Part shown: positions 15,654-40,015 of the stretch, piece after piece
Position numbering within the stretch: position 1 is the first letter of the stretch
How the letters are laid out: every line of letters starts with the position of its first letter
The notes under the pieces: generated by a model
What the model was told of the DNA's origin: nothing
Database searches by the model: none
Seen by the model: only the letters and a program-made list of their open reading frames with translations
Translations under genes and position numbers: made by a program
From: Bacteroidia bacterium
GTDB lineage: Bacteria; Bacteroidota; Bacteroidia; AKYH767-A; OLB10
Assembly: GCA_035275625.1 (NCBI GenBank)
Contig: DATEMK010000564.1
Location: 1-44,011, forward strand
Reading direction: 5' to 3'
DNA length: 44,011 nucleotides

Positions 15654-16514
15654 ATGAAAGGCATTATCCTCGCAGGTGGTTCCGGCACACGGCTCCACCC
15701 TTTAACACTTGCCATGAGCAAACAGCTCATGCCCATCTATGATAAGCCGATGATTTATTATCCTCTTTCTGTGCTTTTGATTGCAGGAATCAAAGAAATT
15801 CTTATCATTTCCACCCCCCATGACCTTCCTCATTTTAAAAAACTGCTTGGTGATGGGAAAAATTTAGGCTGTGATTTTCAATACGCAGAACAGTCCGTTC
15901 CGAATGGCCTGGCACAGGCATTTGTGATCGGTGAAAAATTTATCGGGAAAGAAAAAGTGGCTTTAATTCTTGGCGATAATATTTTTTACGGAACAGACAT
16001 GGCTGGGCTTTTACAAAGAAATAATGATCCGGAAGGGGGAGTGGTATTTGCCTATCATGTTTCCGATCCGGATCGTTATGGAGTAGTTGAATTTGATAAA
16101 AATAGAAAAGTTCTTTCCATAGAAGAAAAACCTAAGCAGCCTAAATCAAATTATGCAGTTCCGGGATTATATTTTTATGATAACGATGTGGTGGAAATTG
16201 CTAAAAATTTACAACCAAGTCCGCGCGGAGAATATGAAATTACGGATGTTAACAGAGAATATCTGAAAAGAGGCAAATTAAAAGTAGGAATACTCGGGCG
16301 CGGAACTGCCTGGTTAGATACAGGTACATTTGCTTCACTGATGCAGGCCTCACAGTTTGTATATGTAATCGAAGAAAGGCAGGGATTAAAAATCGGCTGC
16401 ATTGAAGAAATAGCCTACCGCATGGGTTTTATCACCCTTGAACAATTGCGTGTATTAGCGCAGCCGTTAGTCAAAAGCGGGTATGGAGCATACTTGCTAA
16501 AAATTACAGATTGA
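15654..16514 (+). CDS. rfbA: Glucose-1-phosphate thymidylyltransferase
   Basis: [11 protein letters not shown] nucleotide-binding motif and full-length similarity to RmlA/RfbA as recalled. Confidence 0.95.
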
Positions 16515-16522
16515 TGGAGATT

Positions 16523-16662
16523 GTTATTAGTTATTAGTTATTAGTTATTAGTTAATTGTTAATTGTCAGTTACTGGTTGTCGGTCCTGAATTGTGAATTG
16601 TGAATTATAAATTGTACTTTGTACTTTGTAAATCTTAAATCGTATATCTTAAATCATACATC
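16523..16662. repeat. Twenty heptamers in perfect register, filling almost the whole rfbA-epimerase spacer
   Basis: GTTATTA x4, GTTAATT x2, GTCAGTT, ACTGGTT, GTCGGTC, CTGAATT, GTGAATT x2, ATAAATT, GTACTTT x2, GTAAATC, TTAAATC, GTATATC, TTAAATC, ATACATC. AAAAAG and ATG 16669 follow. Confidence 0.95.
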
Positions 16663-23501: not shown

Positions 23502-26500
23502 TTATTGCGCTAATGTAAACCGCAGAATGAATCCGAATTCTGTGCTTGTGTTTGGAAACGAAGTAGAAATGAGCGGTGTAGTTCCGTCTCTTTTGAAATA
23601 TGCTTTAATATTAAATCGTTCACTTACTGCGTAATCAGCGCCAATATCAAAACTATAAGATTTCAGTCCCGCTGTAGGCTGATCTATTTGTTCCTGGAGC
23701 TTTCGCAAAATGGTGGTATTCTTTCTGAAAGAAACATCAGCCGTAATATTCAGATCATTGTTCATGGACTGCTGTTTTCCTGCAATCTTTAATTTGAATT
23801 TGGGCTTAAAGCGATAGCCGGCCCCGATAGTAAGTTCCGTTCCCTTGATTTCGGTCAGCTGAATACCTGCGAAATCTAAGGACAGGTTGCGGTCTCTTTT
23901 AAATTCAACCCGTGTGGATAATGTATTTTTATTGACTTTCCATCCGATATCAATTCCTAACAGCGGGCTGAACTCTTCGGTAATTGAAATCTGCCCGAAT
24001 TCATAGCGCGATATAAAATTATTTACCTGGTCACGCGCACTTCCGTCCTGTTTGAACAGCAGGCTTGTTGCATACGTATTAATGCTGTACGATGAACGGT
24101 AACCATGGGTTAAGCTCACATTTTGAAATAGTTTTTTAGCAAAAGCCAATTTGGATAATCCGTCATACGTAATGCGCCAGTTCGGCAAGGGAGTTGATGG
24201 AAACGGATTCAGGCTGATCTTGTTTGCATCTTTTCCCGAGTAGGCAGAAAGAAAAGCGAAGGTGAGCACCTGCTGTGATGTGGCTCCAAACCCGTCACGA
24301 TATACATCTGTACTATCAAATCCATTTGACAATGAGTTTTGCTCTGCAAGTCTTTTGGATATTATCCTCCGGTTCTCGTTAAACTTATTAAACACATCAG
24401 AAGTATAATCTTTATTATCCTTTGTGAAAGCCGTATTTATAGTAAGCCACGAGATGCTGAAATTTCCTGCATCAATCGAACTGAAAGAATTAAATCCTTC
24501 TTCTCCGGTCAATGTTTTGAAATAACGGAAATACTCAGAATGATTTTGCGCACGGCTTCTCATTGCATTAAGCTCAATACGCAAGCCGGATGCGGGTTCG
24601 ATGGTGCTTCGCAATGTTAAATTCCGTGTCAGGGTATTGGTGAACTGGTTATTCATAGTAGAGTCACGCGTAATCCACCTGTTATTTGCCGCCCTGTATT
24701 TAAACAGGGAATCCTGCTGGCCAAATACAAATCCCCATCCCGGTGCAGGTCCGCCACTGTAAAGGTCTTGTCCCAACAACTCGGATGTTCGTATATAACC
24801 CGGTAATAATGTTCCCTTTGTTTCAGTATAATTAAGCGTGAAATTTTTTATACTTAAAAATACTTTTGCAATACCTCTTACCACGGCCCCGTATTCTTTT
24901 TCTTTTGGCACTGGCGGTTTCTTAACTGTTGCCGAATCTTTCGGTGCATTTTCATCCACCTTCGGTTTAGGCTGTGCTTTTGGTTTTGGTTTTGGAGGAC
25001 TTAATAATTTTTTGAATAAAGGAACTTTATTATACAACGAGGAAAATGTGAATGTTCCGTTTACCTGTTTGCTATTTGAATTTTGAATGGTATTTCCCAG
25101 TGCGGGATTAATCCGGGGCGCTAATGAAACCGGGTCATAGATCAGGGAAGAAGCGGTCCAGTGGTAATCAAAACCGTAGCGCGTGTTCACACTCACCCAA
25201 TCGGTGATGGGTAACTTGTTTAAAGGAACATTATAAGAAAGATTTCCCGAATGGTGATAATCGGTATTGCGTCCGCCTCTCCAGAAGTTTGACCACATAG
25301 AGTCTCTTTTTGCCGGAGTATCCAGCCGTCCGGGCGGTTCATCAATGCGTGCAATATTGTTTGCATCAAAATCAAACTTCAAAGATTTTGTCAGGTCCCA
25401 TGTGAGGGCATATTGACGCGACATCAAAAACCGCTTATCATAAGTAGGCGGGGGAGCGAACTGATCGTCATTTATATTTCTGAGCTTGAGTTCACCGTAA
25501 TGCCTGTTCACATCGGTTCGGAAGCTGAAGTTGGAAGGGATAAAATTGATATTGAAATCTTTTATTGGCTTTGCATATTTTGATTTGAACCCTTTGGATT
25601 TTGCAAACGGAGAAAATCCTTTTGCCGTTGAAAAATAGTTGTAGCCGATAGCGGCAAGATAATCTTTCTGCAAATCATATTCAGTGTTCACATTTCTCCT
25701 GTAAATTTCACTGTACCCATAGGTAAAATTAAAATTCTCGATGTCATAGACATGAGATTTTGTGGCGTTCCCTGTTTTATTTTTCCTGACGTTAGTAAAA
25801 TTGTAGCTATTTCTTCGTGTGTAATCCTGCGTTATTTTTTTCAGTTCATTTCGCTGGGCATCGTCCGGAAGATTATCCAGCGCATCATTAAATCTCACGT
25901 CAGGATCAAGCGGGTTGTAATAAGGATTTGCAATGGCTTTTGAATAGCCAATATAAAAAGGAATAGAAAGACCGATTTTCTGAGGAAAGAATTTTCCCAG
26001 CTCCAATGATGATGCAATATCGTATTGCTCCCTGTTATCCTGCTGCCGTTCATTTATTTTACTTTCAAGCGGACCAAAACCATACGTGCTTTTTGCTCCG
26101 GAAATTGTCACATTACCCAGATCAGCTAATTTAGCCTGTACCCGTGCAGTTGCTGCCCATCCGCCTTTTTCATTGAAATTGGTCATGCGTAATTCGTTGA
26201 CCCATATTTCCACACATTTTGGTTGTCCATCATCATCCGGGCTGTAAGGATTAAAAAATGTAGCATCAGGATTTTTTATACCGATCATTATTGACTTAAC
26301 ATTACTTAAACTTGGGTTACCAACAACACGGATTAATCTTCCATTACCATCAATAACTGTATCAGGAATTGAATATAATGTGGTATTAAAATTAACTTTT
26401 TTATCTCGTGCAAGTTTGTAATTAACCAATGCTGCAATCTCAATATCCAACTCATTTGCCGTTGGCCAGATTCCTTCAGCGCTGGTAGTGCCGGGAGTTG

Positions 26501-29500
26501 TTAATTTTAATGGGATATTATATTCATAGTAATTTGCGCTGAAATCGGTTCCGAGACGAACAAAGACAACGGCATCATTATCCCTCGTTGTTGTTGCACA
26601 TTGACCGCAGCCCCATTCTTCAGCATGAATAAACATTTTTATATTCTTATAATTCCGCACATCAAACTGGGTGGATTTGTATGCCGCGCGTGATTCTCCA
26701 TCCGGCATATTGCATACTTTTATTGCCAGCGATTGTTCATTTAATTGCTGGTTATTGGTCGTACCAACATTTATTTCTCTTTCAATTCCCGGTGGTATAA
26801 CATAAGGGATAGGTGAGCGTTTTCCGTTTTCCTCCAGGTTTACCACCGTTACATCAAAATCGAAGGCCTGTAAATCCAAAGATATTGATTGATCCTGAAG
26901 GTCAATCGGGAAACCATACCTTCTCCATTCTCCTCTTAAAAATTCCAATTTCCCAAAGCGTAATATTACCGGATTTTCCCATTCTCTCATATACATGCGA
27001 ACAAAGTTTACGGATTTTAAATTAGCTCCATGGTTTATAAGAATTGCATCCGGATCATTGATGGGAATTTTGAATTGATACCATTTAACAGTTCTGCCAA
27101 GTCCATCAGGAGTTTGTGCAGGATTAGATGTAGAATCCACCACATATTTCCAGGATGAAGATGGCAGGCTGAAATCTATTTCATATTCATTATAACTTTC
27201 ATCCTGGTCTGTCTGGAAATCCCTGTTGATATCTTCATTATCAGGAATAGTAGTGGCTGAAATAGAATAACCTTCCGGTGTATCTGAATTTGAGTTGCCC
27301 TCAGTGCCATTGTATTTTTTATAACGGTCAAGAACGCCAAGAGAAAGATTATCAAAATCAGAGCCGCGGAAATAATGAAAGTCATCCGATGAAGGATCCC
27401 GCTGAGCAGTATCTATTACGGCAGTTGATGCACCGAAAGCATTCAGCCTGTCCAGGAATGACTGTTGAAAAAATGATTGTTCCTGTGTTGTGGATAATCC
27501 GTCCAGGCCCACATCCTGCAATTTTCTTGAAGCAGGATCATTGTCAAAGGCGTTTAGTAAATATTCGGTTGTCGGAAATAATCCCCATGAGCTGGTATCC
27601 ACTGAAAAGTTATTTGTTGCTGCGGGCAAACCGTTTTCAAAAAACTGCTGACCATCACTTAAAATATCTTCTGAAATATTCCCCAGGTCAAAGTACAATT
27701 TTCCACCATCCTTGTCTAAGCTTTCATTATTTTTAGGGTCCATTATCCAAAACTGGATAAACTGTACGTTCGAGGATTCAAAATCGCTGGTTTCAATTCT
27801 TCGCATAATTCCGCCCCACCTGCTTTTATGATTAAGCAATTCTCCTGTAGTTGGACTTATACCCGCTGATATTGATGTTGGTTCAACATCATAATTATAA
27901 GGACCACGTTCGCCAGGGTAAAATGCCAGGTTAAGAACCGATAATTCTGTCTGAACATTATTTGGATTTTCTTTGTTTGGAAAAATTTCGTTTTCAAGAA
28001 CTGCTCTTACGTTATTGTTAGAAAGTTCGGCATTGGAAATATTGGGTGGCAGCAGGCTGGCGTTAGCCCTGTAAAAAACGGAAGGATCAATCGTGTACCA
28101 TGCAAATTTTGCGCGGTTGAAGCCATATCGCAGACTGTCAATAAACATTCCCTGCGTTTCTTCAAATCTGCCCGGTATTCCCTGGGGAGTGCTTGCTAAA
28201 AACCAGGTGTTCGCATTGCGAATATCAATGGTTGACTGGCTGCCTTCGAAGTCATCAATATAAGCATTGCCCCCGCTTCCAATGGCGCTTGAATGTCCGG
28301 GGATTAACTGTGCAAATTCACCGGAAACGGTAACCGTTGATTTTTCTTTTGTTGCAAGAAAAGGCAGCTTGTCCACCCATTTGGTGATGAACCGTGAATC
28401 CGTTCTGTATGTTCCGTCAACTCCCCAGATAGTATTTGAAATGGGCTCATCACCGATATTTACTTTTTGAGTGATGGGGCGTTCATTGAGATGAAGGTAG
28501 GTTCCTCCAACGGTAAAATCCTTTGAAATAGCATAGTCGAACCTGGCGCCTAATAGCGTTTTGGACTGTATGCTGAATAAGGATTGGCTCTCCACAGAAA
28601 CTTGAATGGGAGTATTTGATGCAAGGATACCCGCATTGATAATTTTAACGCGCCCTAAATTATAATCAACTGTAAAGTCAGTGTTCTCTGTCAGAGGCAC
28701 TCCCCCGGCTGTAACGGTAACCGAACCCTGCGGGATATTAATTGCGTTCAGTGAAATTTCAGCACCGCTTGCGCTCTGGTAGCTTCCTGCAATGCTGAAT
28801 TTATTTTTTATGGCAAACTGTTGCGCAACTGTAAGTGTGGAATCATATAATTCCTGGTAAATATATTTTGAGGATGGCCCTGCCGGGGTTTGATCATTAA
28901 ACTTAGATTTCAGGTAACTTCCGAATGGTTCTCTTTCAGGAAAAATAATTCTGCCGTTTTGTGTATTAATGGTAATGCCCTCTACAAAATCAAACACGCC
29001 ATCTCCACCTGCATCCCCATTAGAATTAAGTGTATCCAGGCCAAAAATCTTGATCAGCGGATTCCCGTTTATAAAAGATTCTGTTGCACCAGCGGAAATG
29101 TATCTTTTCTTCTTGCCTCCGTCAGCATCATCGGCATATAGCACATCGAGCTTGAAATTTTCCTTTTGGATCTGGTACCCGTTGAGCGAATAAATATTTT
29201 TCATCATCAGATCCCACGTAGGCAACTCAGGGATTTGAGACTTACTTCGAATCAGCTTTAATATTAAAGTATTCGGTGGCTCCACACCCGAAGTGCTTAA
29301 TTCACCTACCCGGTAAACAGTGTTTCCGATTGTGTATTCAAAAGCTACCGCAATGGCTTCGTCAGGATTTAAAGCAGAGTTAAGTGAAATATATCCTAAC
29401 CGCGGATTGAAAACGTATTCTGTAGATTCTAATTTTTTTGCATTCCTGATGACCACATAATCCTGCTGCGCGTCAAAATTGGTCGGGGCACTGCTTAATC

Positions 29501-30779
29501 CGCTTAAAATGGAAGCTGCATTGTCCCCGCTCCTGATTCCTTTATAAGTGGTTGTCATCAGCTTATAAAGATTGTTTGATAAGCTGTCAGATGGATACAC
29601 GGAGGTTCCCTGTGAAATTAAATTTAAAGAAAAATAATTGTATTCGCCTAAATCCATAAAGGCTACCACATCGCGGTTGGCTTCAGATGCAGCGGTCCTG
29701 TTTGTTTTCCAAACTTCAATCTTAGTGATGTTAATCGGGGAATTAATAACGGGAAGATTTTTTAATGCCTTATCATAATTGTCTTTGAAATATTGTGCAA
29801 GGAAAAAATGCTTGTTAGCTTCATATTGGTCTGCCAGTATTTCATAATTTGTAATCTGGCCTCCACCGGGCGGGACATTAATCGTTGAACGTTGTCCTTT
29901 CTGCTGGGAGAAAACAGTGGTAACGTTCATTCTTCCGAATTTCAGGGCAGTCTTGATTCCGAAAAGTGTTTGTGTTCCCTGTATCAATGAACCTGTCAGC
30001 GGAAGCGTAATATTCCCTGCTTCAATTTTCTGGATGATCTCGTCTTCTTTGCCCGTATATTCCAGCTTCATTTTATTTTCGAAATCAAAACCCGCTTCTG
30101 TGTTGTAATTCACGCCAAGCTTCATTTTTTCGCCAATGTTTCCAATTACATTCATCTGAATTTGTTCATTGAATTCAAATGAAGTATTGGTGCGCTGTTT
30201 AACAGGTACAGCAGGGTTTTCACTGTGCTGAATCTTGAGCCCGAATTTCAGGCTTGCGGAACCCTGCGGACGAATGTCAATGGTGTTGCCTCCGAAAATA
30301 CGGTCAAAAACATCGCTGCCTATATAGATTTTTGGATTGAATCCTTTTCGCTGCAAAATGTCATTTTCGCTGCTTCGCTGCTCCCAGTATTTTTTTGTGG
30401 AATTTTTAAATTGTGCTTCCTTGAACTCTTCAAAAGTCATGTAAGTGGGGTCGCGGTAAAACATATCACCCATCCGCTCATTGATGTCGTATTGTTTTTC
30501 GTCAGGATTATATTCAATGGTGGTTTTAATATTTTCCGGATCATCCAGGTACAAAGGGGTGTTGTTATACTGGCTGGAATATGGATCAGAATAACGGTCA
30601 TGAAAAGGATATTTTAAAGAATCTGTGAGCGGAGTATCAACAGGTACCGGAATGGTGGGTGTGCCTGAAAGATCGCTGTAGCCGCTGAATTCTGCAGGCT
30701 TAGTTCCCCAAACAATGCTAAACACAGGAACGACCAATGCAGCGCTTAAAGTAAATTGTACAAGTTTTTTTAATTGCAC
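23502..30779 (-). CDS. sprA: T9SS outer-membrane translocon SprA/Sov
   Basis: 2425-aa ORF with an N-terminal signal anchor. Its size and sequence character match giant beta-barrel SprA, and it sits next to ruvA, an arrangement I recall in Bacteroidota. Confidence 0.93.
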   Translation of the reverse strand: MQLKKLVQFTLSAALVVPVFSIVWGTKPAEFSGYSDLSGTPTIPVPVDTPLTDSLKYPFHDRYSDPYSSQYNNTPLYLDDPENIKTTIEYNPDEKQYDINERMGDMFYRDPTYMTFEEFKEAQFKNSTKKYWEQRSSENDILQRKGFNPKIYIGSDVFDRIFGGNTIDIRPQGSASLKFGLKIQHSENPAVPVKQRTNTSFEFNEQIQMNVIGNIGEKMKLGVNYNTEAGFDFENKMKLEYTGKEDEIIQKIEAGNITLPLTGSLIQGTQTLFGIKTALKFGRMNVTTVFSQQKGQRSTINVPPGGGQITNYEILADQYEANKHFFLAQYFKDNYDKALKNLPVINSPINITKIEVWKTNRTAASEANRDVVAFMDLGEYNYFSLNLISQGTSVYPSDSLSNNLYKLMTTTYKGIRSGDNAASILSGLSSAPTNFDAQQDYVVIRNAKKLESTEYVFNPRLGYISLNSALNPDEAIAVAFEYTIGNTVYRVGELSTSGVEPPNTLILKLIRSKSQIPELPTWDLMMKNIYSLNGYQIQKENFKLDVLYADDADGGKKKRYISAGATESFINGNPLIKIFGLDTLNSNGDAGGDGVFDFVEGITINTQNGRIIFPEREPFGSYLKSKFNDQTPAGPSSKYIYQELYDSTLTVAQQFAIKNKFSIAGSYQSASGAEISLNAINIPQGSVTVTAGGVPLTENTDFTVDYNLGRVKIINAGILASNTPIQVSVESQSLFSIQSKTLLGARFDYAISKDFTVGGTYLHLNERPITQKVNIGDEPISNTIWGVDGTYRTDSRFITKWVDKLPFLATKEKSTVTVSGEFAQLIPGHSSAIGSGGNAYIDDFEGSQSTIDIRNANTWFLASTPQGIPGRFEETQGMFIDSLRYGFNRAKFAWYTIDPSVFYRANASLLPPNISNAELSNNNVRAVLENEIFPNKENPNNVQTELSVLNLAFYPGERGPYNYDVEPTSISAGISPTTGELLNHKSRWGGIMRRIETSDFESSNVQFIQFWIMDPKNNESLDKDGGKLYFDLGNISEDILSDGQQFFENGLPAATNNFSVDTSSWGLFPTTEYLLNAFDNDPASRKLQDVGLDGLSTTQEQSFFQQSFLDRLNAFGASTAVIDTAQRDPSSDDFHYFRGSDFDNLSLGVLDRYKKYNGTEGNSNSDTPEGYSISATTIPDNEDINRDFQTDQDESYNEYEIDFSLPSSSWKYVVDSTSNPAQTPDGLGRTVKWYQFKIPINDPDAILINHGANLKSVNFVRMYMREWENPVILRFGKLEFLRGEWRRYGFPIDLQDQSISLDLQAFDFDVTVVNLEENGKRSPIPYVIPPGIEREINVGTTNNQQLNEQSLAIKVCNMPDGESRAAYKSTQFDVRNYKNIKMFIHAEEWGCGQCATTTRDNDAVVFVRLGTDFSANYYEYNIPLKLTTPGTTSAEGIWPTANELDIEIAALVNYKLARDKKVNFNTTLYSIPDTVIDGNGRLIRVVGNPSLSNVKSIMIGIKNPDATFFNPYSPDDDGQPKCVEIWVNELRMTNFNEKGGWAATARVQAKLADLGNVTISGAKSTYGFGPLESKINERQQDNREQYDIASSLELGKFFPQKIGLSIPFYIGYSKAIANPYYNPLDPDVRFNDALDNLPDDAQRNELKKITQDYTRRNSYNFTNVRKNKTGNATKSHVYDIENFNFTYGYSEIYRRNVNTEYDLQKDYLAAIGYNYFSTAKGFSPFAKSKGFKSKYAKPIKDFNINFIPSNFSFRTDVNRHYGELKLRNINDDQFAPPPTYDKRFLMSRQYALTWDLTKSLKFDFDANNIARIDEPPGRLDTPAKRDSMWSNFWRGGRNTDYHHSGNLSYNVPLNKLPITDWVSVNTRYGFDYHWTASSLIYDPVSLAPRINPALGNTIQNSNSKQVNGTFTFSSLYNKVPLFKKLLSPPKPKPKAQPKPKVDENAPKDSATVKKPPVPKEKEYGAVVRGIAKVFLSIKNFTLNYTETKGTLLPGYIRTSELLGQDLYSGGPAPGWGFVFGQQDSLFKYRAANNRWITRDSTMNNQFTNTLTRNLTLRSTIEPASGLRIELNAMRSRAQNHSEYFRYFKTLTGEEGFNSFSSIDAGNFSISWLTINTAFTKDNKDYTSDVFNKFNENRRIISKRLAEQNSLSNGFDSTDVYRDGFGATSQQVLTFAFLSAYSGKDANKISLNPFPSTPLPNWRITYDGLSKLAFAKKLFQNVSLTHGYRSSYSINTYATSLLFKQDGSARDQVNNFISRYEFGQISITEEFSPLLGIDIGWKVNKNTLSTRVEFKRDRNLSLDFAGIQLTEIKGTELTIGAGYRFKPKFKLKIAGKQQSMNNDLNITADVSFRKNTTILRKLQEQIDQPTAGLKSYSFDIGADYAVSERFNIKAYFKRDGTTPLISTSFPNTSTEFGFILRFTLAQ

Positions 30780-31006: not shown

Positions 31007-31591
31007 TTAAAGACTGCCCAATGCTGATTTAATTAATTCTTCCACGCTCAGGTCTGTGCCTTTAGATTTGATGGCATGGTCCAATGATTTTTCAGCAGCA
31101 TTTTTTGCAAATCCTAAAGTTAATAAAGCACTTAACGCTTCATCGCGGTTTGTATTGTGGATAATGGAAATCATCTTTGTGTTTGCATCGGTTTTTGCCA
31201 GCTTGTCTTTGAGATCAATGATGATGCGCTGCGCAGATTTTGAACCGATGCCTTTTATATTTTGCAATACGGGCGCATTACCGGTTACGATTGCCTGCGC
31301 AATTTCAACGGGCGTTAAGGAAGAGAGCATCATGCGTGCAGTGGCAGCGCCCACGCCTGAAACGCTGATGAGGTTGCGGAACATCCTGCGCTCGTCTTCA
31401 TCGGCAAAGCCATACAGGGTATGCGCATCTTCTTTAATTGCAAGATGCGTAAATATTTTGCAGTGGCTTCCTTCCTGTACTTTACTGTAGGTATTTAACG
31501 AAATATTTACCTGGTACCCGATGCCTGCACATTCGAGCACAATGTGCGTGGCGGTTTTTGAAATTATTTTTCCTGAGATGTAATCGTACAT
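31007..31591 (-). CDS. ruvA: Holliday junction branch migration complex subunit RuvA
   Basis: MYDYISGKI... OB-fold N-terminus and two HhH motifs (ISVSGVGAATA, IKGIGSKSAQRI). Confidence 0.95.
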   Translation of the reverse strand: MYDYISGKIISKTATHIVLECAGIGYQVNISLNTYSKVQEGSHCKIFTHLAIKEDAHTLYGFADEDERRMFRNLISVSGVGAATARMMLSSLTPVEIAQAIVTGNAPVLQNIKGIGSKSAQRIIIDLKDKLAKTDANTKMISIIHNTNRDEALSALLTLGFAKNAAEKSLDHAIKSKGTDLSVEELIKSALGSL

Positions 31592-31601
31592 TTGGCAATT
31601 A

Positions 31602-31625
31602 GTAATTGGGTAATTGGGTAATTGG
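31602..31625. repeat. Octamer stutter GTAATTGG x3 in the ruvA leader
   Basis: Read directly. It is preceded by the degenerate unit GCAATTA and begins 11 nt upstream of the ruvA ATG. Confidence 0.9.
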
Positions 31626-31668
31626 TGAATCCTGTAAGCTGTATGGGTAAATAATTGGAGAATGATTG

Positions 31669-31676
31669 CAAAAGTA
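31669..31676 (-). promoter_or_regulatory. Candidate -7 box (TACTTTTG on the minus strand) for ruvA
   Basis: CAAAAGTA on the + strand, 78 nt upstream of the ruvA ATG. The stutter lies between the box and the ATG. Confidence 0.3.
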
Positions 31677-31721
31677 ATTTATTGCTGATTAACTTTTTGC
31701 TGAATGCAATAACCTTTACAT

Positions 31722-32225
31722 GATCTGTTGAGCCCGCATGGCTTGCGATGGAGGTATTTTTATAATCACCTGCGCACTTTCTTTAATCACTTGTGACATT
31801 ACTGCAATCTGTTGCGCTCCCGCTGTGATCTGTTGTGACAAATTTGTAATCTGTGGTTTCCGCGCGGGGATCAACAGCCGCCTCGACACAATCAGTTGTT
31901 TATTTATTGCAATCACAGGTTCCTTTACGAAAATCAGTGGTTTGCTTTCCGAAATCAGAGGTTATCTCTCCTGGATTGCTGGTGTGCTTTAAGGAATCGT
32001 TGGTTGTCTTTACGGGGTTGGGGGTTCTCTCTCCGGGATCGTTGGCAGGCTCTTGGTGATTTTTAGTCGCCTTTCAAAAATTCGCAGTGTGCTTACGAGG
32101 ATGATGAGTTCCCTCTCCGGGATTCGAGGTGTGCTTTTGAAAATTCGTGGTGCCCCCGCGACAATTTGCGGCCACCTCGTGGAGATTGCTGGTAATTTCC
32201 TTGTGGGTGGAGGTGAGTTCTTGGT
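31722..32225. repeat. Array of 24 tandem 21-bp units in perfect phase (diverged, no indels)
   Basis: An RATY core (GATC/AATC/GATT/AATT) sits at 31722+21n for nearly every n from 0 to 22. Consensus is about RATCnnTGGTnnnCTYTCnnn. Confidence 0.9.
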
Positions 32226-32229
32226 TTGA
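31738..32229 (+). pseudogene. Conceptual heptad-repeat ORF (I-x-G/C/S-x-L-x-x, 22 heptads) interrupted by one TAA; coding status unproven
   Basis: ATG 31738 to TGA 32227-32229 is open except for TAA at 31990-31992. Synonymous-type variation occurs at the conserved Ile, Gly and Leu codons. There is no family match and the antisense frame is also largely open. Confidence 0.3.
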
Positions 32230-32549
32230 ACATGGGATTTGTAAGGTTTCGGGAGGAATTTATTGTTTTTGGAGGAAGTGTTTCAGGAGAATTTTGGAAA
32301 GGTTCTGATGTTGAATGAGTTTGGATTTTGAGTGGTGCTGACGGTGAGGGGATTTGTGGTGTAAGGGATTTAGGGAAGGAGTTTTTGGAAAAAGGGAAGT
32401 TGAATTGATCGGTTAATTGCAAGTTTTGAGCCAGAAAAAAGTAAATTGTCTGAACCTTGATTAAATGGATTAAGAGATTAGTATGATTAAAAATGAAACA
32501 GATTTTGAAATCCTTTTCATAGTCTTATGAGAAATGAGAGGTTATGAAA

Positions 32550-33992
32550 CTACATTACGTCAATGAGAGTACCATCTCCGAACGCTCCGACAAGTTCTGA
32601 TTCAATAGGGCGGCAAATGTCTCTTTCATCCAAAATGGGTTCAAAACTTTTCCCATATTTATCAGGATTACGATAAAGATGTGACTCACCGAAATTGAGT
32701 ATGGTATACCAACTATTTGGTGAAAAGGAATTGTGATCTTCAGCAATCTGCTGAATAAAACAACCTAATGCATAACAAGACATTTTGCTTGCAGGCATTT
32801 TTAATTCCTCATAAATTATTTTTGCAAATGAGTGATATTTCTTTGAAGTAACAATTACTGATTTATCTTCTACGTGATTTATGACAGTTGCTTTTTCTTC
32901 TCTTGCGCCAATTATTTGCAATTTGCTTAATCTGGAAAGGTCAATTTTTTTTGATTTGCAGGCTTCAGGATTTCGCTTTAATTCATTACGCTTCCTGGTA
33001 AGGCTTTTTAACATGTCTCCAGAAGTGCAAAAAGGAATATATAAAAAATCGGCATAGCTGTTGAACAACTCCTCGTAAAGGGCGTTTTTATTTGTCAATT
33101 TATTTTCCGCAAAATATTCCTGATCCTTAATGTAGTATCCATTTCTGTTAAAAGTTAAATCCAAAACCTCAGTGGTTGTCAATTTATTAAAATTAACATC
33201 AGAATAATCATATTGTACAACACAACCAATTTTTTCTAATTTTCCACCATCTGCTCTCTCAGATTCTTTACATAATACCCGTAATGGCGCCATTCCAAAA
33301 CTGGATAAAAAATATTGGAGACTGAAAGCAAGTTTGCATTTGAAGACTGTGCTTAAAACAGGCAACGCAGTTTTTTGCAGTAAATTTTTTTCTATCAACG
33401 ACCTGTAGATATTAAATATATCAATTGCTTCGCGATCATTGAAATGTCCCGTTGGAAGGGTGGATTCATCTTTTATATAAACATTTTTAAATGGTATTAA
33501 TTTACTTATAATTGGCATTAGTTCATTTAATATTTTTTTGATAATTTTTATATCATCTTTAACCTCCTGTATACTATTTAAATTTTCTAACTTTTTTTCG
33601 AATTTGCTGAGTATATCCACAAAATTTATGCGGAAGTTATTTGTAGCTGGGTTTGGAAATTCATAGAGAAAATTTTCATATTCAGGCATAGGAAAGTTTT
33701 CTATGGCTTGCGAAAAAGGTTTGCCTGTACTGTAAGTATTTAAGGCTGTCAGAATATTATAACTACATCCATGTTTTTTAAAACTACTTTCTAATGATTT
33801 ATAATAATAGGTCTGAAAAACCGTGGAGTAAGACAGTTTATAATCCAAGTCGGAATTTGAATTAATGTGGTTTACGAGCGCTTTAAAACTTTCCTCATCA
33901 TTTTTCCACTTATAACCAGGATTTTCAAACAGGAATCGTTTAATGGCTTGTTTTAATAAATCGCTAATTGTCTGGGATGTAACTTGAGGCAT
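32550..33992 (-). CDS. Fold-type-II PLP-enzyme-like protein (Trp-synthase-beta/threonine-synthase superfamily) lacking the Schiff-base lysine, with an unknown N-terminal domain of about 160 aa
   Basis: Residues 171-188 VYIKDESTLPTGHFNDRE align with the family motif K-x-E-x-x-N-P-T-G-S-F-K-D-R, but with N184 where the PLP lysine belongs. About 300 aa follow, which is the expected domain length. IPFCTSGDM sits where the phosphate-binding Gly loop is expected. AT-rich gene. Confidence 0.55.
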   Translation of the reverse strand: MPQVTSQTISDLLKQAIKRFLFENPGYKWKNDEESFKALVNHINSNSDLDYKLSYSTVFQTYYYKSLESSFKKHGCSYNILTALNTYSTGKPFSQAIENFPMPEYENFLYEFPNPATNNFRINFVDILSKFEKKLENLNSIQEVKDDIKIIKKILNELMPIISKLIPFKNVYIKDESTLPTGHFNDREAIDIFNIYRSLIEKNLLQKTALPVLSTVFKCKLAFSLQYFLSSFGMAPLRVLCKESERADGGKLEKIGCVVQYDYSDVNFNKLTTTEVLDLTFNRNGYYIKDQEYFAENKLTNKNALYEELFNSYADFLYIPFCTSGDMLKSLTRKRNELKRNPEACKSKKIDLSRLSKLQIIGAREEKATVINHVEDKSVIVTSKKYHSFAKIIYEELKMPASKMSCYALGCFIQQIAEDHNSFSPNSWYTILNFGESHLYRNPDKYGKSFEPILDERDICRPIESELVGAFGDGTLIDVM

Positions 33993-34322
33993 TTCTTTAA
34001 AATTTAGGAGTTAAAATTATTTTTCACGATTTTCATTCTCATAATATAAAGGTAGTAAAAGTTTGCAAAGGAAACAAATTTTTTTTATCAAATTAAAGTT
34101 GTCTGAGCATTAAATTTTTATTTTTTTTTATTTTTTATCAACAATTTTTGTTTAATAAGTATTAATAATGCGGTAAATTAAATAAATATGCCATCCCTTG
34201 TCCAGATATTTCTTTTTGCTTCTCTTCAAAAGATTTGCAATAATATGTCAAATATAACTTTCATGCAAATATAAAAAAGTAAATATGTGATAAACGTGAA
34301 AAAACGTTGGACGTAATGAAAT

Positions 34323-34340
34323 ATCATACTTTAGTATGAT
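34323..34340. promoter_or_regulatory. Perfect 8-2-8 palindrome ATCATACT-TT-AGTATGAT (operator-like)
   Basis: Read directly. It is centred about 45 bp upstream of the candidate -7 box of the 374-aa/CHASE2 operon, inside the 432-bp divergent intergenic region. Confidence 0.4.
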
Positions 34341-34376
34341 TTTACGAAATTACTTTTTTTTCATGTTTCTCTTTCA

Positions 34377-34384
34377 TAGATTTG
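34377..34384 (+). promoter_or_regulatory. Candidate -7 box (TAGATTTG) for the 374-aa/CHASE2 operon
   Basis: Exact TAnnTTTG match 40 nt upstream of ATG 34425. Confidence 0.35.
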
Positions 34385-34424
34385 GTGGTGTTAAAATACT
34401 GAAACCATTAAAAACATTAAAAAA

Positions 34425-35549
34425 ATGAAAAACGTTTACTCTAACCCCGTGAAGATTTTCTTCGTCCGGGCGGCCAGTGGCAAATTGTTATTATTTGTTG
34501 TCTTGTTTATTTTCTCCGGCTTTTCCTTGCATCCTCAATGCATTTTACCGGATTCTATCTTGCAACAGGTCAAAATTATTGAATTTCCACCAGAATGGTG
34601 TGATCAACTTTTGCCTGTCGTATATGACATGCGAAAGAATAATATGGCTTCGTGCAGAGATATTAAAGACTACCTTGATTCAAATATCCGTGGTGGGGCA
34701 AAATTCGAAATTGAAGTTTTGTTTGGAACAAAATGGGTTACAATAAAATCGTGTACTTCCTATCAAGAGGAAAAAAACCAAGTCCCAGGACGAATTGATT
34801 TGGCTACTGAAGAAATAACTTTTAATTCTGATGCGCGCTATTCCAAAGCAAAATCTTTGCTGGAAAATGAAATCAGCCGATTTTGTTTTAAATTGGATTC
34901 GATAACCGTGGAGGACTCATCCGTAATGCCTTTGCTTAATATGTTTTCACAATTTTTAGCAACAAGGTTTACAGAAAAAGGGGACATCATTCAAATAGAT
35001 TCAACAGTTTCCAGCCAGGTTCTACTTAAGGATAGTTCATATGAACAATTCACCGGACTTAATGACTTGTCAATAGCACCGGTTGTTACAGTATTGCTTT
35101 CCGACAATGATTTGTCGGACAAAAAACGCCTGCAAGATTACAACGATTGGCTGAATACAAAATATGTTGCAGAAATGTCTTCATTAACAGGTTTAATATT
35201 TGAAGATATGAAAAAAGCAAAATCAGAAATTCTACATTCCGAACAACCGTTTGAAAGCGGACAAAATGTTAATGTTAAAAAAAATAAAGTGAATAAAACA
35301 GATACGGTTTCTGTTAGGACATGCCCTTTTTTAAACAGTCTGCCAAAAGAAAATAAAGCCTCTTTAAAATTTGAACTAAGATTTTTATCGTATAAAGAAA
35401 AAACGGAAGTTATTCAATTAATCAGTGTTTTAAAATCAATTTGTCCAGATATTACTCCAGAAGAATTACTCATAGAGGTAAAAAATCATTTGCGGAAGAA
35501 GTATGATTTTGTTAATGATGCTATGGTTGATTCATTGGTAATAAAATAA
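34425..35549 (+). CDS. Hypothetical exported or membrane-anchored protein
   Basis: N-terminal hydrophobic segment KLLLFVVLFIFSGFSL, no recognised domain. Its stop lies 33 nt before the next ORF on the same strand. Confidence 0.65.
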   Translation: MKNVYSNPVKIFFVRAASGKLLLFVVLFIFSGFSLHPQCILPDSILQQVKIIEFPPEWCDQLLPVVYDMRKNNMASCRDIKDYLDSNIRGGAKFEIEVLFGTKWVTIKSCTSYQEEKNQVPGRIDLATEEITFNSDARYSKAKSLLENEISRFCFKLDSITVEDSSVMPLLNMFSQFLATRFTEKGDIIQIDSTVSSQVLLKDSSYEQFTGLNDLSIAPVVTVLLSDNDLSDKKRLQDYNDWLNTKYVAEMSSLTGLIFEDMKKAKSEILHSEQPFESGQNVNVKKNKVNKTDTVSVRTCPFLNSLPKENKASLKFELRFLSYKEKTEVIQLISVLKSICPDITPEELLIEVKNHLRKKYDFVNDAMVDSLVIK

Positions 35550-35582
35550 ATTTTCAAAAAATCTAAAAAACTCAAAATCGAA

Positions 35583-37034
35583 ATGCATACTCTTTCCATA
35601 ATAATATTAAAAACTGAAGAGAAGTATAATGCCTGGCGCGAAAAAACGAAAAAAAATTTCGGTGTAATTTTTTTGGGATCATTGTTTTTTACTGCAGCAA
35701 CTTTATTAGTTACCGTTTATTTAAGCTATTGGTTTAGCGTTGAATCTTTATATGGTGAGTTTACAGGAATAAAGCGTTGGGGGATTTTTGGCAATCATTT
35801 TAAACAACGTGATTTTATTGAAAGCAATTTTCTTTTATTGGATGTGAATCATGATATTTCAGCGGCATATTCCGATTTTGACATTTCTGATAAAGACATT
35901 GATAAAATTCCTTTGGTGGGCGTACCAAACAGGAAAAAATTGGCTACTGTATTAAAATGGCTTTATGCTAATCAAAATTTATACGAAGTGATAATCAGCG
36001 ATGTCCTATTCACCAAAAAATCATTGGCTTATCCTGAAAAATTACCGAAGCATTATTATGATTCATTATCAAAATCATATCGAGATACAGTACTCTTGAC
36101 TTATATAAATTATGATGACAGTATTATACGATATTTTGATTTGCTTGATTCAAAACGCAAAATTATTGCAGCCGGAGAGTATAATGGAAATGCATTCGAA
36201 AAGGATATTTTATCCGGATCCCACTTTAATCCTGATAGCAGAGGATACGTAAATTGCAGTGATGATGAACAAACCCGGTTCCTGAATTATAAATTAGCAC
36301 GTTGCAATTCGAAAAATAAAACATTTTTGAGCTTACCACTTAAAATGTATGAAAGGATAAATCATAAAACAATTTCAGCTAATGGCAGGGAATTGACACT
36401 TAATATTGCTGACTCAGATAACCGGAAAAAAAAATTTAAATTTTGGGGCTTTTATTTGAATCAATTTGTTCCTGAATTTTATTATAATCAAAAGGATATT
36501 GATAATTTGTTAACTTATGCAAAGTCTGAATTCCCAGATTCAGAAAGAGTATCCTTAATTACCTTAAATGAATCTTATGTTTATCCAGAGCGTATTAAAA
36601 AAATCCTTTTAAGTGATCAAGGGAATAGAAAAAGCATATTTATCGGCTCGTTTGACCGCAATCAATCCGATAAGCATGATGTTTTACAGGCGGGAATGAT
36701 GAATGGATCATCTATCATATTGAATGTATATTACAATTTGCGGAAACAGCAGAACAAATTAAGTATCGTTTTGATTATTTCGCTTATCGTCTTATATTTT
36801 ATAATTCTTTCTATTTACGTAAGCCAAACCATAAATAATATTATTCTAACCATTGTAGCACATATTGGGCATGAATTGCATTATTATGGCCTCGCTTTTT
36901 TGTTAATCATTGTATCATTTTGTTTTAATGTTACTATGAGAATTATTGTACTTGAAGTTTTGCTATTTATTGCAGGATTACTTTTAAGGGGATTTAAAAT
37001 AGTTATTAAGAAAAAGCAAAGTCATGGGGAGTAA
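35583..37034 (+). CDS. CHASE2-like extracytoplasmic sensor-domain membrane protein without any output domain
   Basis: One N-terminal TM, an ectodomain of about 330 aa, then 3 C-terminal TMs and a stop. Ectodomain blocks match CHASE2 as I recall it: FLLLDVNHD...VPNRKKLATVLKWL...VIISDVLF, then GYVNCSDDEQTRFLNYKL...FLSLPLKMY, then SIFIGSFDRNQSDKHDV...MMNGSSIILNVYYNL. Confidence 0.6.
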   Translation: MHTLSIIILKTEEKYNAWREKTKKNFGVIFLGSLFFTAATLLVTVYLSYWFSVESLYGEFTGIKRWGIFGNHFKQRDFIESNFLLLDVNHDISAAYSDFDISDKDIDKIPLVGVPNRKKLATVLKWLYANQNLYEVIISDVLFTKKSLAYPEKLPKHYYDSLSKSYRDTVLLTYINYDDSIIRYFDLLDSKRKIIAAGEYNGNAFEKDILSGSHFNPDSRGYVNCSDDEQTRFLNYKLARCNSKNKTFLSLPLKMYERINHKTISANGRELTLNIADSDNRKKKFKFWGFYLNQFVPEFYYNQKDIDNLLTYAKSEFPDSERVSLITLNESYVYPERIKKILLSDQGNRKSIFIGSFDRNQSDKHDVLQAGMMNGSSIILNVYYNLRKQQNKLSIVLIISLIVLYFIILSIYVSQTINNIILTIVAHIGHELHYYGLAFLLIIVSFCFNVTMRIIVLEVLLFIAGLLLRGFKIVIKKKQSHGE

Positions 37035-37347
37035 CCGCTGAAAAAAAATAATTTGATTTTTTAAATCCGTTTTATAGCCTTTATGAAAAATGAAGTATTT
37101 GCAACTTTATTCAGATAAACTTCAATCTTCCGGCAAAATGAATTGATCAGTGTATGATTCCTCACGAATTATTTTTGATATAAAAGAGAGATCATCAGGA
37201 TTGATTCTTTTTAAAAATAAATTTGACACCCGTTTGGGATTTTTATCCTGTATTACAATCTCTGTCGCTTTGATTAACGACTGAAATATGGATCTGTCAA
37301 TTATTCGATTGTAATATGGAAACGAATACCCGGGAGCTACCCAGTTT

Positions 37348-37674
37348 ATGGAAACAGCACCAGATTTTTACAATGAGCTGATTGCGTCATTTGAAATTAA
37401 CGATTACCCGACTCATTATACTGAGTTTGATATCCTGACAAGAGATAAAGCAACGGGAGAAGCATTGGGCGGAGTGAAAATTACTGCTACTTGTACAAAG
37501 GGCAGCATGGAGCAATTTTCGAACCCGGAAGGTGCCGCAGATTTTATCCAGTTTAAGCCGACCTGGTGGACGCTTACTTACGAATGTCCCGGTTATGAAA
37601 AACTGGTAATGCCAAACCAGAAGGCTGAAAAAGGAGTCAAGATGAGCCTTGTGGCTGAACTTGTAAAGATTTAA
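37348..37674 (+). CDS. Small protein with a carboxypeptidase-regulatory-like (prealbumin-fold) segment; possibly a gene fragment
   Basis: ILTRDKATGEALGGVKITAT...NPEGAADF resembles the CarboxypepD_reg pattern. No signal peptide. A strong terminator follows. Confidence 0.45.
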   Translation: METAPDFYNELIASFEINDYPTHYTEFDILTRDKATGEALGGVKITATCTKGSMEQFSNPEGAADFIQFKPTWWTLTYECPGYEKLVMPNQKAEKGVKMSLVAELVKI

Positions 37675-37698
37675 GTGATTTTAATTTGTTAAATTGTT

Positions 37699-37728
37699 AA
37701 TCCCGGGGTAGTGCCCGGGATTTTTTTT
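37699..37728 (+). terminator. Rho-independent terminator
   Basis: Stem TCCCGGG / CCCGGGA (7 bp), loop GTAGTG, then 8 T. Flanking A residues allow bidirectional function. Confidence 0.85.
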
Positions 37729-37781
37729 ACACCCATGACCCAAAAAGAGGACTGAACAGAAAATCCAGAAAACGGTTTCTT

Positions 37782-38072: not shown

Positions 38073-38243
38073 AGATGTGTTGTTTTAAAAATGTGAAATG
38101 TTAAGAACGGTTGTTAAAAACACATACGGAAAAATTATGCCAGAAGTTTTTAAGCTGGAAAAAATACAGGTTATTATTTATTGAGTGCCATATTCCACAG
38201 TTATCATCAGCAAGTGTGAACATTCATCCTCAAAATAGACGAT

Positions 38244-38285
38244 AGACCAAAGACCAAAGACCATTGACGAGTGACAAAAGTGAGT
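38244..38285. repeat. Six phase-locked heptamers (AGACCAA family)
   Basis: AGACCAA AGACCAA AGACCAT TGACGAG TGACAAA AGTGAGT, downstream of the beta-helix gene. Confidence 0.85.
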
Positions 38286-38305
38286 TTTGATCCTGAACCT
38301 TCACT

Positions 38306-40015
38306 TTAAAAATCTTTTATTTGAAATACATATCCATACTTCCATGCAGGATTATTCTGAACGCGGCAGAATTTATTTCCGTTCAAACCATTTTGCGGTG
38401 CAAATGTATTGTTGCTGTCGGATGAGTTCTCGTTCAAATCTATTTCAATAAAATAAAGCCTTTCATTTTTTCTTGAGGGAGATTTTTCATTGAACGTATT
38501 GCTGATGAAAGTACAGCCCATAAATCTTCCGAGGAAACCTCTCAGGGGAGAATCAGGGAATTGAGGAATTATTTTAACAAGGTCATTCACATAAAATTTC
38601 CAGTTGCAATGATTGAAGATTCTCTCCGAATTTCCATCTTTACTTTCAACAGTAGTTATTGCCAGTGTTTTATGAATTTCAAAATTGCAGTAATTGAATT
38701 CATAAAAATGGTCATCGGGTGGATCAATTCCGAAATCAATCAAATAACCGCCCCAAAAAGAAAGTGTGTCTTTAGCCCCTTTTCTCCAGTCAGTGATGGT
38801 ACAGTTATTAAATTTCATACGGTCAGCAGAATCAATTCCGGCCACATGTGTAAATCTTCCCCTGATAATGCAATCATTGAAAACAGTTCGAATCATTCCT
38901 TTGGGCCAGATGCTCCACGAACCGGCATGAGAAGCGGAAAACTCGCAATCATTAAAAGTGATGTCCGAAACATAGGGAAAATGATTGTCAGAAATCAGTC
39001 CGCAAAACATGTTATCCAGAAATTTACAATTGGCAAATTTGATGTTCACACAACTTCCACCGGCTTCCGGCTCAATGTCAACGCCTGCTCCCGGGTTGTT
39101 GTAAAATACGGTTCCCGTATTTGAAAAGATGCCGTTAACGACATTAATATTGGTCCCCGCAGTAATGCTCAGGCCCTGCCTTGAATTGGCGGAGCAGGTA
39201 ATATTTTCAAGATGTATGCAGTCAGGATTGCCATTTGAGTAGCAAAGCATGATACCGTCACGCCCGAAATTATTGCACGTAATATTTTTTACTGTTATAT
39301 TCTTAGAACCAAATACGTCAATGCCATCATGACCTATTTGATAACCGTTGCATTCGCCAAAAAATCCTCCAAGTTTCATTTTAGTATTGTTGCCATTCAT
39401 TTCAATCTGCTCAATCGTTATGCAGGAACTGTTCTTTATGTGAATAAAAGTTCCCAGCGTGGCATAGGCGTTGTAATCCTTAGTGGTGCTGCAGGCTTCG
39501 TTTGAGGGTATATACGAAACCGGTTGCATCTGCTTATCATATCCGCCAAAAGGCAAACCGTTTTTGTATTTGATAACGGTTCGTTTGCTCCCTGAAATAA
39601 TTATGTTTTTTGCATTCTCCAATTCCATCATGTTTACACCCTTACGGGTAATGCGGATGTCATTCACAAAACTTTGCTCATTGCGCAGAGGATTGGTTAT
39701 TTTCTGACCAGGTTCAAGCTGCAATCCTACAAGATAAGTTCCCGGTGGAATGTATAATTTAAGTATAAAAGAATCGCTGCAATTTTTATTGAGCCAGTCA
39801 GAGGCAGCGAGGAAAGAAAAGGAGTCGTCATGTTTATTATTGCCTTTCGCGCCAAAGTCTGCTTTAAGATCTTTTGTGATGATCTGTAAAGGTGTTTTGC
39901 ATTGGCAATTGTTTTCAAACGCAGCCTGCTCTCCCGATTTTGCAGAGATAAAAGCTGCGACCAGGAATGTTCCGCAAATAATAACCGTGAATACTAAGAG
40001 CAGGTTTCTTTTCAT
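38306..40015 (-). CDS. Secreted right-handed parallel beta-helix protein (pectate-lyase-superfamily / tailspike-like glycanase fold)
   Basis: Signal anchor; DFGAKGNNKHDDSFSFLAA N-terminal motif. Successive PbH1-type coils: ITVKNITCNNFGRDGI, IHLENITCSANSRQGL, INVVNGIFSN, IKFANCKFLDN, ITFNDCEFS, MKFNNCTITD. Confidence 0.78.
   Translation of the reverse strand: MKRNLLLVFTVIICGTFLVAAFISAKSGEQAAFENNCQCKTPLQIITKDLKADFGAKGNNKHDDSFSFLAASDWLNKNCSDSFILKLYIPPGTYLVGLQLEPGQKITNPLRNEQSFVNDIRITRKGVNMMELENAKNIIISGSKRTVIKYKNGLPFGGYDKQMQPVSYIPSNEACSTTKDYNAYATLGTFIHIKNSSCITIEQIEMNGNNTKMKLGGFFGECNGYQIGHDGIDVFGSKNITVKNITCNNFGRDGIMLCYSNGNPDCIHLENITCSANSRQGLSITAGTNINVVNGIFSNTGTVFYNNPGAGVDIEPEAGGSCVNIKFANCKFLDNMFCGLISDNHFPYVSDITFNDCEFSASHAGSWSIWPKGMIRTVFNDCIIRGRFTHVAGIDSADRMKFNNCTITDWRKGAKDTLSFWGGYLIDFGIDPPDDHFYEFNYCNFEIHKTLAITTVESKDGNSERIFNHCNWKFYVNDLVKIIPQFPDSPLRGFLGRFMGCTFISNTFNEKSPSRKNERLYFIEIDLNENSSDSNNTFAPQNGLNGNKFCRVQNNPAWKYGYVFQIKDF

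Follow-up and report, generated by a model that had tools for sequence, protein, structure and literature searches.

An AT-rich accessory islet beside ruvA in a Bacteroidia bacterium and its candidate split sensing module

To understand an AT-rich interval in the genome of an uncultured Bacteroidia bacterium, we analysed a stretch of 44,011 bp (assembly GCA_035275625.1, contig DATEMK010000564.1; henceforth the window) and found a strain-specific accessory islet next to ruvA, at positions 31593-37755, which carries the three genes P1, P2 and P3 (32550-37034; Table 1). P1 belongs to a family with homology to PALP, i.e., to enzymes dependent on pyridoxal phosphate (PLP), and its branch of that family has lost the Schiff-base lysine; P3 is related to CHASE2 proteins and ends without an output domain; and the arrangement of P1 and P3 was found again at one other locus. 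The reading that we favour, to which we would give an even chance, is that the islet derives from recombination and contains a self-contained three-gene module in which signalling is split between P3 and the separately encoded P1.

Results

A strain-specific segment between ruvA and P5

The limits of the islet come from a comparison with a close relative that we used for synteny, the JGI metagenome contig Ga0134123_10000166 (L083). In the window, sprA, a gene of the type IX secretion system (T9SS), lies at 23502-30779 and ruvA at 31007-31591. The window and L083 share one gene order, with identities of 87% for SprA, 95% for RuvA, 86% for P5, 74% for the beta-helix protein P6, 92% for a CMD protein and 86% for a DUF5686 protein. 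The nucleotide match (blastn) ends at window position 31592 and restarts at 37756, and in place of the 6163 bp between these points L083 has 241 unrelated bp (L083 5207-5447). Because L083 has an empty site with conserved flanks, the segment is accessory, as an earlier note on this DNA had proposed. That note had placed the limits at 32450-37350, which describes the AT-rich core well; by synteny the variable segment is wider, as it comprises a 21-bp array, P1, P2, P3 and an open reading frame (ORF) of 108 aa, P4. A second sample (L002) contains the islet with 100% identity, and the window sequence lies within the 53.9-kb European Nucleotide Archive (ENA) metagenome contig ERZ27257057 k141_1118118.

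The segment itself encodes no integrase, transposase or defence hallmark recognised by Pfam, NCBIfam, PADLOC or PHROGs, its flanks have only chance-level direct or inverted repeats, and no RNA gene, including any tRNA or transfer-messenger RNA (tmRNA) target, was found in the window. The earlier note had likewise reported an absence of mobility genes, defence hallmarks and flanking repeats. Given that unrelated DNA has been swapped between conserved flanks, the replacement suggests homologous recombination in these flanks as its origin rather than site-specific insertion. Specifically, the islet would most likely have arrived, or been exchanged, by recombination between ruvA and P5 with no site-specific element involved. 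The nearest genome among GTDB representatives, the metagenome-assembled genome (MAG) of a “Bacteroidia bacterium” (L003; RuvA 88%, SprA 79%), is collinear with the window exactly as far as ruvA, the start of which is a synteny breakpoint. We considered L003 as an outgroup and discarded it for that reason; because it is not collinear, insertion in the lineage of the window and deletion in L083 are formally indistinguishable.

The composition of the segment changes with its genes. GC content is 0.310 for 32450-37350 vs. 0.393 for the window outside 31593-37755; in sliding windows of 500 bp, the 18 inside average 0.308 (standard deviation 0.030) and the 148 outside 0.392 (0.032; Mann-Whitney p = 4.6e-11), and every such window in 32501-37500 has a GC content of 0.25-0.36, compared with ~0.39 elsewhere. 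The drop described in the earlier note is thus borne out, and its spot counts of G+C were exact (12/60 at 33541-33600 and 15/60 at 36421-36480, against 31/60 at 31261-31320 and 33/60 at 39061-39120). AT-richness is confined to P1-P3, since the array and P4 have a host-like GC content (0.43). At third codon positions (GC3), P1, P2 and P3 have values of 0.28, 0.31 and 0.27, vs. about 0.35-0.47 in most other long genes. As ORFs of 374-483 codons are unexpected by chance at 31% GC, we infer from stop-codon frequencies and base composition that P1-P3 are genuine genes. Elsewhere in the window, one gene at 7205-8011 (minus strand, 268 aa; GC 0.326, GC3 0.286) is the sole other long ORF as AT-rich as these three.

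P1 lies in a lysine-less branch of a PALP-like family

P1 is built of a conserved N-terminal helical domain (~100 aa) followed by a fold-type-II PLP (PALP) domain. Word-indexed searches returned nothing beyond the queries for P1 and P3, which made both look like ORFans; that idea was abandoned, as the tool was insensitive and HMMER found relatives of P1 in number. An exhaustive HMMER (phmmer) scan of 1.84 billion representatives gave 77 P1 homologues at E<=1e-3, the best of them (P0003, on contig L088) with E=3e-47 and 38% identity. At the level of the family the homology is clear: 42 of the 46 aligned members match Pfam PALP (best E=2.2e-24), and a family profile searched against PDB finds cysteine synthase, threonine synthase and serine racemase at E ~1e-6 to 1e-4. 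P1 itself reaches the NCBIfam threonine synthase model at E=0.0011, far under the cut-off, and scores of the family against NCBIfam, threonine synthase models included, are all well under their cut-offs, which puts it far from any curated enzyme family. Sequence searches of PDB with P1, P2 and P3 returned nothing. The family carries the signature NPTGTHKDRMAWE...SxISSGxAAxAIQ, and in most lysine-containing members the N-terminal domain is followed by a linker, PEFPxxxPxFPATP, which is poorly conserved in the branch of P1.

This branch has five members (P1, P0003, P0004, P0005 and P0026) and is set apart by its active site. We assigned the Schiff-base position by alignment to the SxKDR motif of cysteine synthase: outside the branch, 97% of the 72 further aligned members have the lysine (K185), whereas all five members of the branch have N or Q there. 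In P1 the motif reads TGHFNDR, with N185 at the lysine position in place of the lysine of (S/T)xKDR. Three further positions have changed in the branch, namely H184 (to F or Y), G219 of the SSG loop (to C in all five) and G323 of the GSG loop (to T, H, K or R), while the scaffold residues E176, G182, R187, A189, T280, P320 and G325 are retained and ~15 scaffold positions are invariant. Joint loss of family-conserved residues with a kept scaffold is the pattern of a maintained pseudoenzyme, and as far as the alignments go it indicates that P1 is such a protein rather than a decaying gene. The label of PLP-like pseudoenzyme in the earlier note therefore holds through family-level homology and the loss of the lysine, not through a direct Pfam match. 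A profile search with the lysine-less alignment retrieved P1 and P0026 alone.

P3 resembles CHASE2 proteins and recurs beside a P1 homologue

CHASE2 is an extracytoplasmic sensor domain, and its described members typically have a fused cytoplasmic output (cyclase, kinase or protease). A simple Kyte-Doolittle scan, as opposed to a dedicated topology predictor, gives P3 a transmembrane (TM) segment at residues 25-48, an extracytoplasmic region of ~340 aa and a C-terminal TM bundle at 389-477; the last predicted TM segment is followed by only ~6 residues before the protein ends, and no cytoplasmic output domain was found. By BLASTP, P3 is 27% identical over 327 aa (E=2e-15), spanning the extracytoplasmic region, to a 496-aa protein encoded on contig L088. 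That protein matches Pfam CHASE2 with E=2.7e-8 and 34.1 bits (gathering score 26.3), and it too has no output domain. By sequence, P3 is thus a divergent CHASE2-type protein whose membership is transitive through the L088 protein. What the earlier note had called an output-less CHASE2 sensor is upheld on these two grounds, transitive homology and topology, with a direct Pfam scan negative. Its description of P2 as an exported protein agrees with the N-terminal export or anchor segment seen by hydropathy. No homologue of P2 was found in Pfam, NCBIfam, PADLOC, PHROGs, PDB or phages, the exhaustive HMMER scan having covered P1 alone.

The gene layout is as the earlier note gave it, with P1 on the minus strand and, beyond a 432-bp intergenic region, P2 and P3 on the plus strand. 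The same layout is found on L088: P0003 is divergent from the gene of a 291-aa signal-peptide protein, which is followed by the gene of the 496-aa CHASE2 protein. The divergent region there is AT-rich and 379 bp long (432 bp in the window), 12 bp separate the 291-aa and CHASE2 genes (33 bp in the window), and the module has a GC content of 0.27-0.35 vs. 0.37-0.47 in its flanks. The idea that the three genes co-occur was therefore confirmed in part: P1 and P3 are together at this one further locus, and the middle gene matches P2 in position and signal peptide only.

On L088 there is a tmRNA gene, and the module is located 280 bp upstream of it, on its 5' side. This gene (L088 5339-5732; tag GETSYALAA) is immediately downstream of the P1-like gene, and 5735-6010 hold two pairs of repeats of ~60-90 bp that resemble repetitive extragenic palindromic (REP) elements, plus a 78-aa GIY-YIG ORF. 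A GC-richer non-coding stretch of ~1 kb downstream of P1 at both loci was examined as a possible common feature and dismissed, as the one at L088 consists of the tmRNA gene and the REP-like repeats and is unrelated to the array of the window.

The recurrence bears directly on a second explanation, namely that unrelated low-GC accessory genes have piled up at a recombination-prone spot by ruvA and that P1-P3 have no joint function. Accessory genes are usually AT-richer than the core, and the locus is certainly variable, with an extra gene between P5 and P6 in L083 and different genes past ruvA, including a Mutator transposase, in L003; moreover, P2 has no homologue at L088 and P0026 no CHASE2 neighbour. 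However, the best P1 homologue among 1.84 billion representatives has a P3 homologue next to it, with order, orientation and spacing as in the window, and P2 and P3 are separated by 33 bp and their L088 counterparts by 12 bp. Because CHASE2 genes are presumably few per genome, such an adjacency should be unlikely to arise by chance, and we consider this second explanation unlikely.

The divergent layout also invites a third explanation. In regulators of the MocR/GabR type a PLP-fold ligand sensor is fused to a DNA-binding domain, and P1 could analogously regulate transcription, with its dead PALP domain as the sensor of a small molecule and its N-terminus bound to the 432-bp region to control P2-P3. 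The long AT-rich region between the divergent genes with its perfect 7+7 palindrome, the kept fold of P1 with its catalytic lysine lost, and the conserved ~100-aa alpha-helical N-terminal domain would all suit such a role. We nonetheless rate it as quite improbable, given that a profile of the N-terminal domain reveals no helix-turn-helix (HTH) or other DNA-binding domain in Pfam or PDB, that lysine-containing relatives with the same N-terminal domain are single cargo genes or TIR fusions, which would be unusual for transcription factors, and that no operator motif is convincingly common to the window and L088. The only candidate for a shared operator, a 13-mer in AT-rich DNA, was judged to be due to chance. 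Within the 432-bp region the count of promoter-like sequences was not above that in shuffles, and no Rfam match was found.

Genomic contexts of the wider family

Across its members, the P1 family has several kinds of partner and neighbour. TIR_2 is present in 5 of the 46 aligned members and a phage-integrase domain in one (1/46); in P0014, P0019 and P0042 an N-terminal TIR_2 domain is fused to PALP. In two lineages, lysine-containing members adjoin the genes for the relaxase and type IV coupling protein (T4CP) of mobilisable elements, a pattern which suggests that one class of such elements regularly carries a gene of this family as cargo or accessory. As for the lysine-less branch, P0026 is flanked by an AbiEii/DUF6088 pair and by an HTH-SocA_Panacea gene, and P0005 has a neighbour that matches HEPN/AIPR_N weakly. 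A D12 methyltransferase gene adjoins P0006, one TIR-PALP fusion is inserted in a polysaccharide locus, and another lysine-containing member stands beside an amino-acid-type biosynthetic cluster.

In two Bacteroidota lineages (L094/L095 1212-8323 and L104/L105 1700-8296) the lysine-containing PALP gene occupies the same position, divergent from an operon in which two uncharacterised proteins, one of them with TM segments, come before a coupling protein of the TraG type and a relaxase. Next to other members of the family stand small divergent TM proteins, which were looked at and set aside, being homologous neither to each other nor to P3. A phage or plasmid origin was likewise rejected: tblastn found no match for P1 or P3 in plasmids or for P1, P2 or P3 in phages, and there was none in viral contigs. 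Our literature search found no paper that connects CHASE2 to pyridoxal, to defence islands or to a function against phages, and none that connects TIR to the PALP family of P1.

In view of these contexts, the earlier note's idea of an undescribed sensory or regulatory system stays a hypothesis, as they point at least equally to conflict with mobile elements or phages. One form of conflict would be an abortive infection (Abi) type of defence, in which P1 senses infection and the CHASE2 protein together with P2 acts as a membrane-disrupting effector. The occurrence of family members in TIR fusions, beside AbiE, Panacea or a weakly HEPN-like gene, or on mobilisable elements speaks for it, as do the presence/absence polymorphism of the segment and the fact that many known defence effectors are TM proteins. 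Yet PADLOC matches none of the proteins, the literature search yielded no paper tying CHASE2 to anti-phage defence, the known role of CHASE2 is that of an extracytoplasmic sensor domain, and the islet of the window lies outside any defence island; on this evidence we give such a defence system a low probability.

The 21-bp array, P4 and other features

The coordinates of the main features are collected in Table 1. The earlier note had regarded the 21-bp array at the left end of the islet as a possible cis element of the module. Its autocorrelation peaks at lags of 21, 42 and 63 (0.48, 0.49 and 0.45 vs. a background of ~0.29), and its 23 units are in perfect phase with zero indels. Read from the ATG at 31738, the plus frame runs for 164 codons with a single internal stop (TAA at 31990-31992), and the conserved columns fall on codon positions 1-2 of ATY (Ile), NGY (Gly/Cys/Ser) and CTY (Leu), the third position being C or T. 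The array has a GC content of 0.43-0.47, its ORF matches no Pfam family, and no such array was found near the L088 module. Probably it is a gene encoding heptad repeats, a pseudogene of recent origin or a pair of ORFs; because of this coding signature and its absence near the L088 module, we do not take it for a cis element. The N-terminal part of the array ORF is Cys-rich, and a strong skew of G over C is due to GGT, TGT and AGT codons. Among other Bacteroidota loci retrieved through ruvA, L008 (~1150-1500 and 5880-6350) and L010 (~690-1050 and 3490-3660) also contain regular repeats with a periodicity of 21 bp or a multiple of 7 bp; lag-21 identity is at least 0.9 in three of these four stretches and ~0.6 in L010 3490-3660.

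At the other end of the islet, the gene remnants proposed in the earlier note at 37035-37347 could not be substantiated, as this interval has just ORFs of 34-44 aa. The next gene, P4, has a sub-threshold match to Pfam CarboxypepD_reg (E=0.0032), and the possibility that it is a fragment of the nearby DUF5686 gene was dropped, since the two have no similarity.

Table 1 Features of the islet and its borders, in window coordinates
Feature	Position	Strand	Description and evidence
ruvA	31007..31591	-	Conserved left flank; Pfam RuvA_N, HHH_5, RuvA_C; 95% identical in L083, 88% in L003
Strain-specific segment, 6163 bp	31593..37755	.	blastn/tblastn of the window vs. L083; ORF map of L083
21-bp array, 23 heptads x-x-I-x-G/C/S-x-L	31738..32229	+	Autocorrelation, frame and stop counts, column information content, translation
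P1, 480 aa, predicted cytoplasmic	32550..33992	-	PALP family homology; no TM segment
Divergent intergenic region, 432 bp, AT-rich	33993..34424	.	Perfect palindrome ATCATAC-TTTA-GTATGAT at 34323-34340
P2, 374 aa	34425..35549	+	N-terminal hydrophobic signal/anchor segment, residues ~9-42 (hydropathy)
P3, 483 aa	35583..37034	+	CHASE2-type protein, divergent in sequence; 33 bp beyond P2
P4, 108 aa	37348..37674	+	Host-like GC (0.43); absent from L083; in the variable segment
Terminator-like hairpin	37699..37722	+	9-bp stem with 6 G-C pairs, then a T run; between convergent P4 and P5
P5, 96 aa	37782..38072	-	Conserved right flank, 86% identical in L083

Several smaller differences were seen around the locus. 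A second indel separates the window from L083, in which positions 5841-7722 hold the gene of a 514-aa protein with a C-terminal T9SS sorting domain (Por_Secre_tail); it sits between P5 and the beta-helix gene P6, and the window has no such gene. Its counterpart in the window (38151-38307) amounts to only ~160 bp, including the 7-bp tandem repeat ATAGACC (x4.9) at 38235-38268. Directly upstream of the ruvA start codon, at 31602-31625, the window has a perfect tandem repeat, GTAATTGG x3, which is not in the L083 counterpart. Further away, at about 16510-16650, an intergenic run of assorted 7-bp tandem repeats (TTATTAG, AATTGTG, TACTTTG and others) gave a spurious signal in our scan for 21-bp periodicity. 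In L003, the region beyond ruvA holds a small multidrug resistance (SMR) efflux gene, a DnaJ/CbpA-like gene and a transposase of the Mutator family (1027-1902, 6649-6975), as well as HD genes.

Discussion

Under the reading that we favour, the module at 32550-37034 would consist of a cytoplasmic, non-catalytic P1 and of a P2-P3 operon transcribed divergently from it. P3, possibly with the exported P2, may perceive an extracytoplasmic cue. CHASE2 (PF05226) is presented as a small-molecule receptor domain in the part of PMC8195603 that cites its description by Zhulin et al. 2003. Because P3 has no fused output, it would rely for signalling on P1, which is encoded separately. In P1 a pocket for a ligand or partner may have arisen from the former active site, and the downstream activity may reside in the N-terminal domain. 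As the P1 family occurs on mobile elements, fused to TIR and near Abi or toxin-antitoxin genes, the most likely role of the module would be in conflict with mobile elements or phages, or in envelope-stress signalling, rather than in metabolism.

Several observations weigh against this reading. With regard to the proteins, P3 has no CHASE2 match in Pfam (hmmscan, E<=1), P1 matches Pfam PALP only at E=0.19 and 11.5 bits, under the gathering score of 35, a profile of the N-terminal domain of the P1 family has no match in Pfam or PDB, and single-sequence AlphaFold2 models of P1 and P3 are unusable (predicted local distance difference test, pLDDT, of 36 and 42). With regard to the module, it was seen on one contig besides the window (n=2), where the 291-aa protein has no detectable sequence similarity to P2; of the remaining members without the lysine, no CHASE2 gene adjoins P0026, and P0004 and P0005 are on contigs too short for a judgement. 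With regard to a role in conflict, PADLOC-DB 2.0 gave no significant match for P1-P5 or for ten members of the family, and the islet has housekeeping genes as its neighbours in the window. Finally, once normalised for base composition, the core has an ordinary dinucleotide signature (delta* 46.3 vs. 44.5 +/- 12.9 for chunks of the same size), meaning that the compositional anomaly is one of GC content only. Such an anomaly fits a donor of the same broad lineage, or the general tendency of accessory genes to be AT-richer than the core genome.

One may go a step further and propose that the P1 family is an undescribed, mobile-element-borne family of fold-type-II PLP proteins with a novel N-terminal domain and, in some members, a TIR fusion, which acts in conflict with phages or mobile elements. 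In its lysine-less branch the dead enzyme would be the cytoplasmic partner, or “missing output”, of an output-less CHASE2 membrane protein and would form, together with that protein and a variable exported one, a new type of split transmembrane module for sensing or for an effector role. This broader proposal we regard as doubtful. The component domains are of known kinds. Neither PADLOC nor NCBIfam nor any paper that we located covers the pairing of PALP without the lysine and CHASE2 without an output, or the TIR-linked PALP family that stands behind it. If the pairing is real, it would offer a first functional handle on signalling by output-less CHASE2 proteins and on a widespread, unannotated, TIR-associated and mobile-element-borne PALP-like family, and it would add a PLP-fold pseudoenzyme to the enzyme folds that have been reused as sensors. 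If it is not, the islet is an ordinary one, a further case of AT-rich accessory DNA at a locus prone to recombination.

Comparison with known systems

As an islet, the segment is of an ordinary kind. It has in common with other genomic islets and islands a low GC content, presence or absence between close relatives and genes with no assigned function; it differs from islands in having no integrase, tRNA or tmRNA target or direct repeats, in its size of merely 6.2 kb, and in being replaced in L083 by unrelated DNA rather than by a clean excision.

The TIR proteins of conflict and defence (e.g., of the Thoeris type) resemble the P1 family in that some of its members carry TIR_2 and occur as single accessory genes. 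By contrast, P1 itself has no TIR domain, and no TIR system in PADLOC has a PALP domain of this family. With MocR/GabR regulators P1 shares a PLP fold that is apparently non-catalytic in use and a gene divergent from the neighbouring operon, but the regulators have a fold-type-I aminotransferase domain, keep PLP binding and carry a winged-helix domain, of which none was found in P1.

The closest relatives of P1 by fold are the fold-type-II PLP enzymes (threonine and cysteine synthase, serine racemase), with which its family shares the block K-D-E-x3-P-T-G-x2-x-D-R and the downstream scaffold. P1 departs from these enzymes in having N185 in place of the Schiff-base lysine, in the replacement of the glycine of SSGxAA and of the first glycine of GSG, and in an extra N-terminal domain of ~160 residues. 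P3, for its part, is too divergent for a direct match to the Pfam model of CHASE2 (PF05226) and, unlike CHASE2 sensors with a cyclase, kinase or protease output, is paired with a PALP-like protein from a separate gene; like those sensors, it has an N-terminal TM segment, an extracytoplasmic region of ~340 aa and a C-terminal TM bundle.

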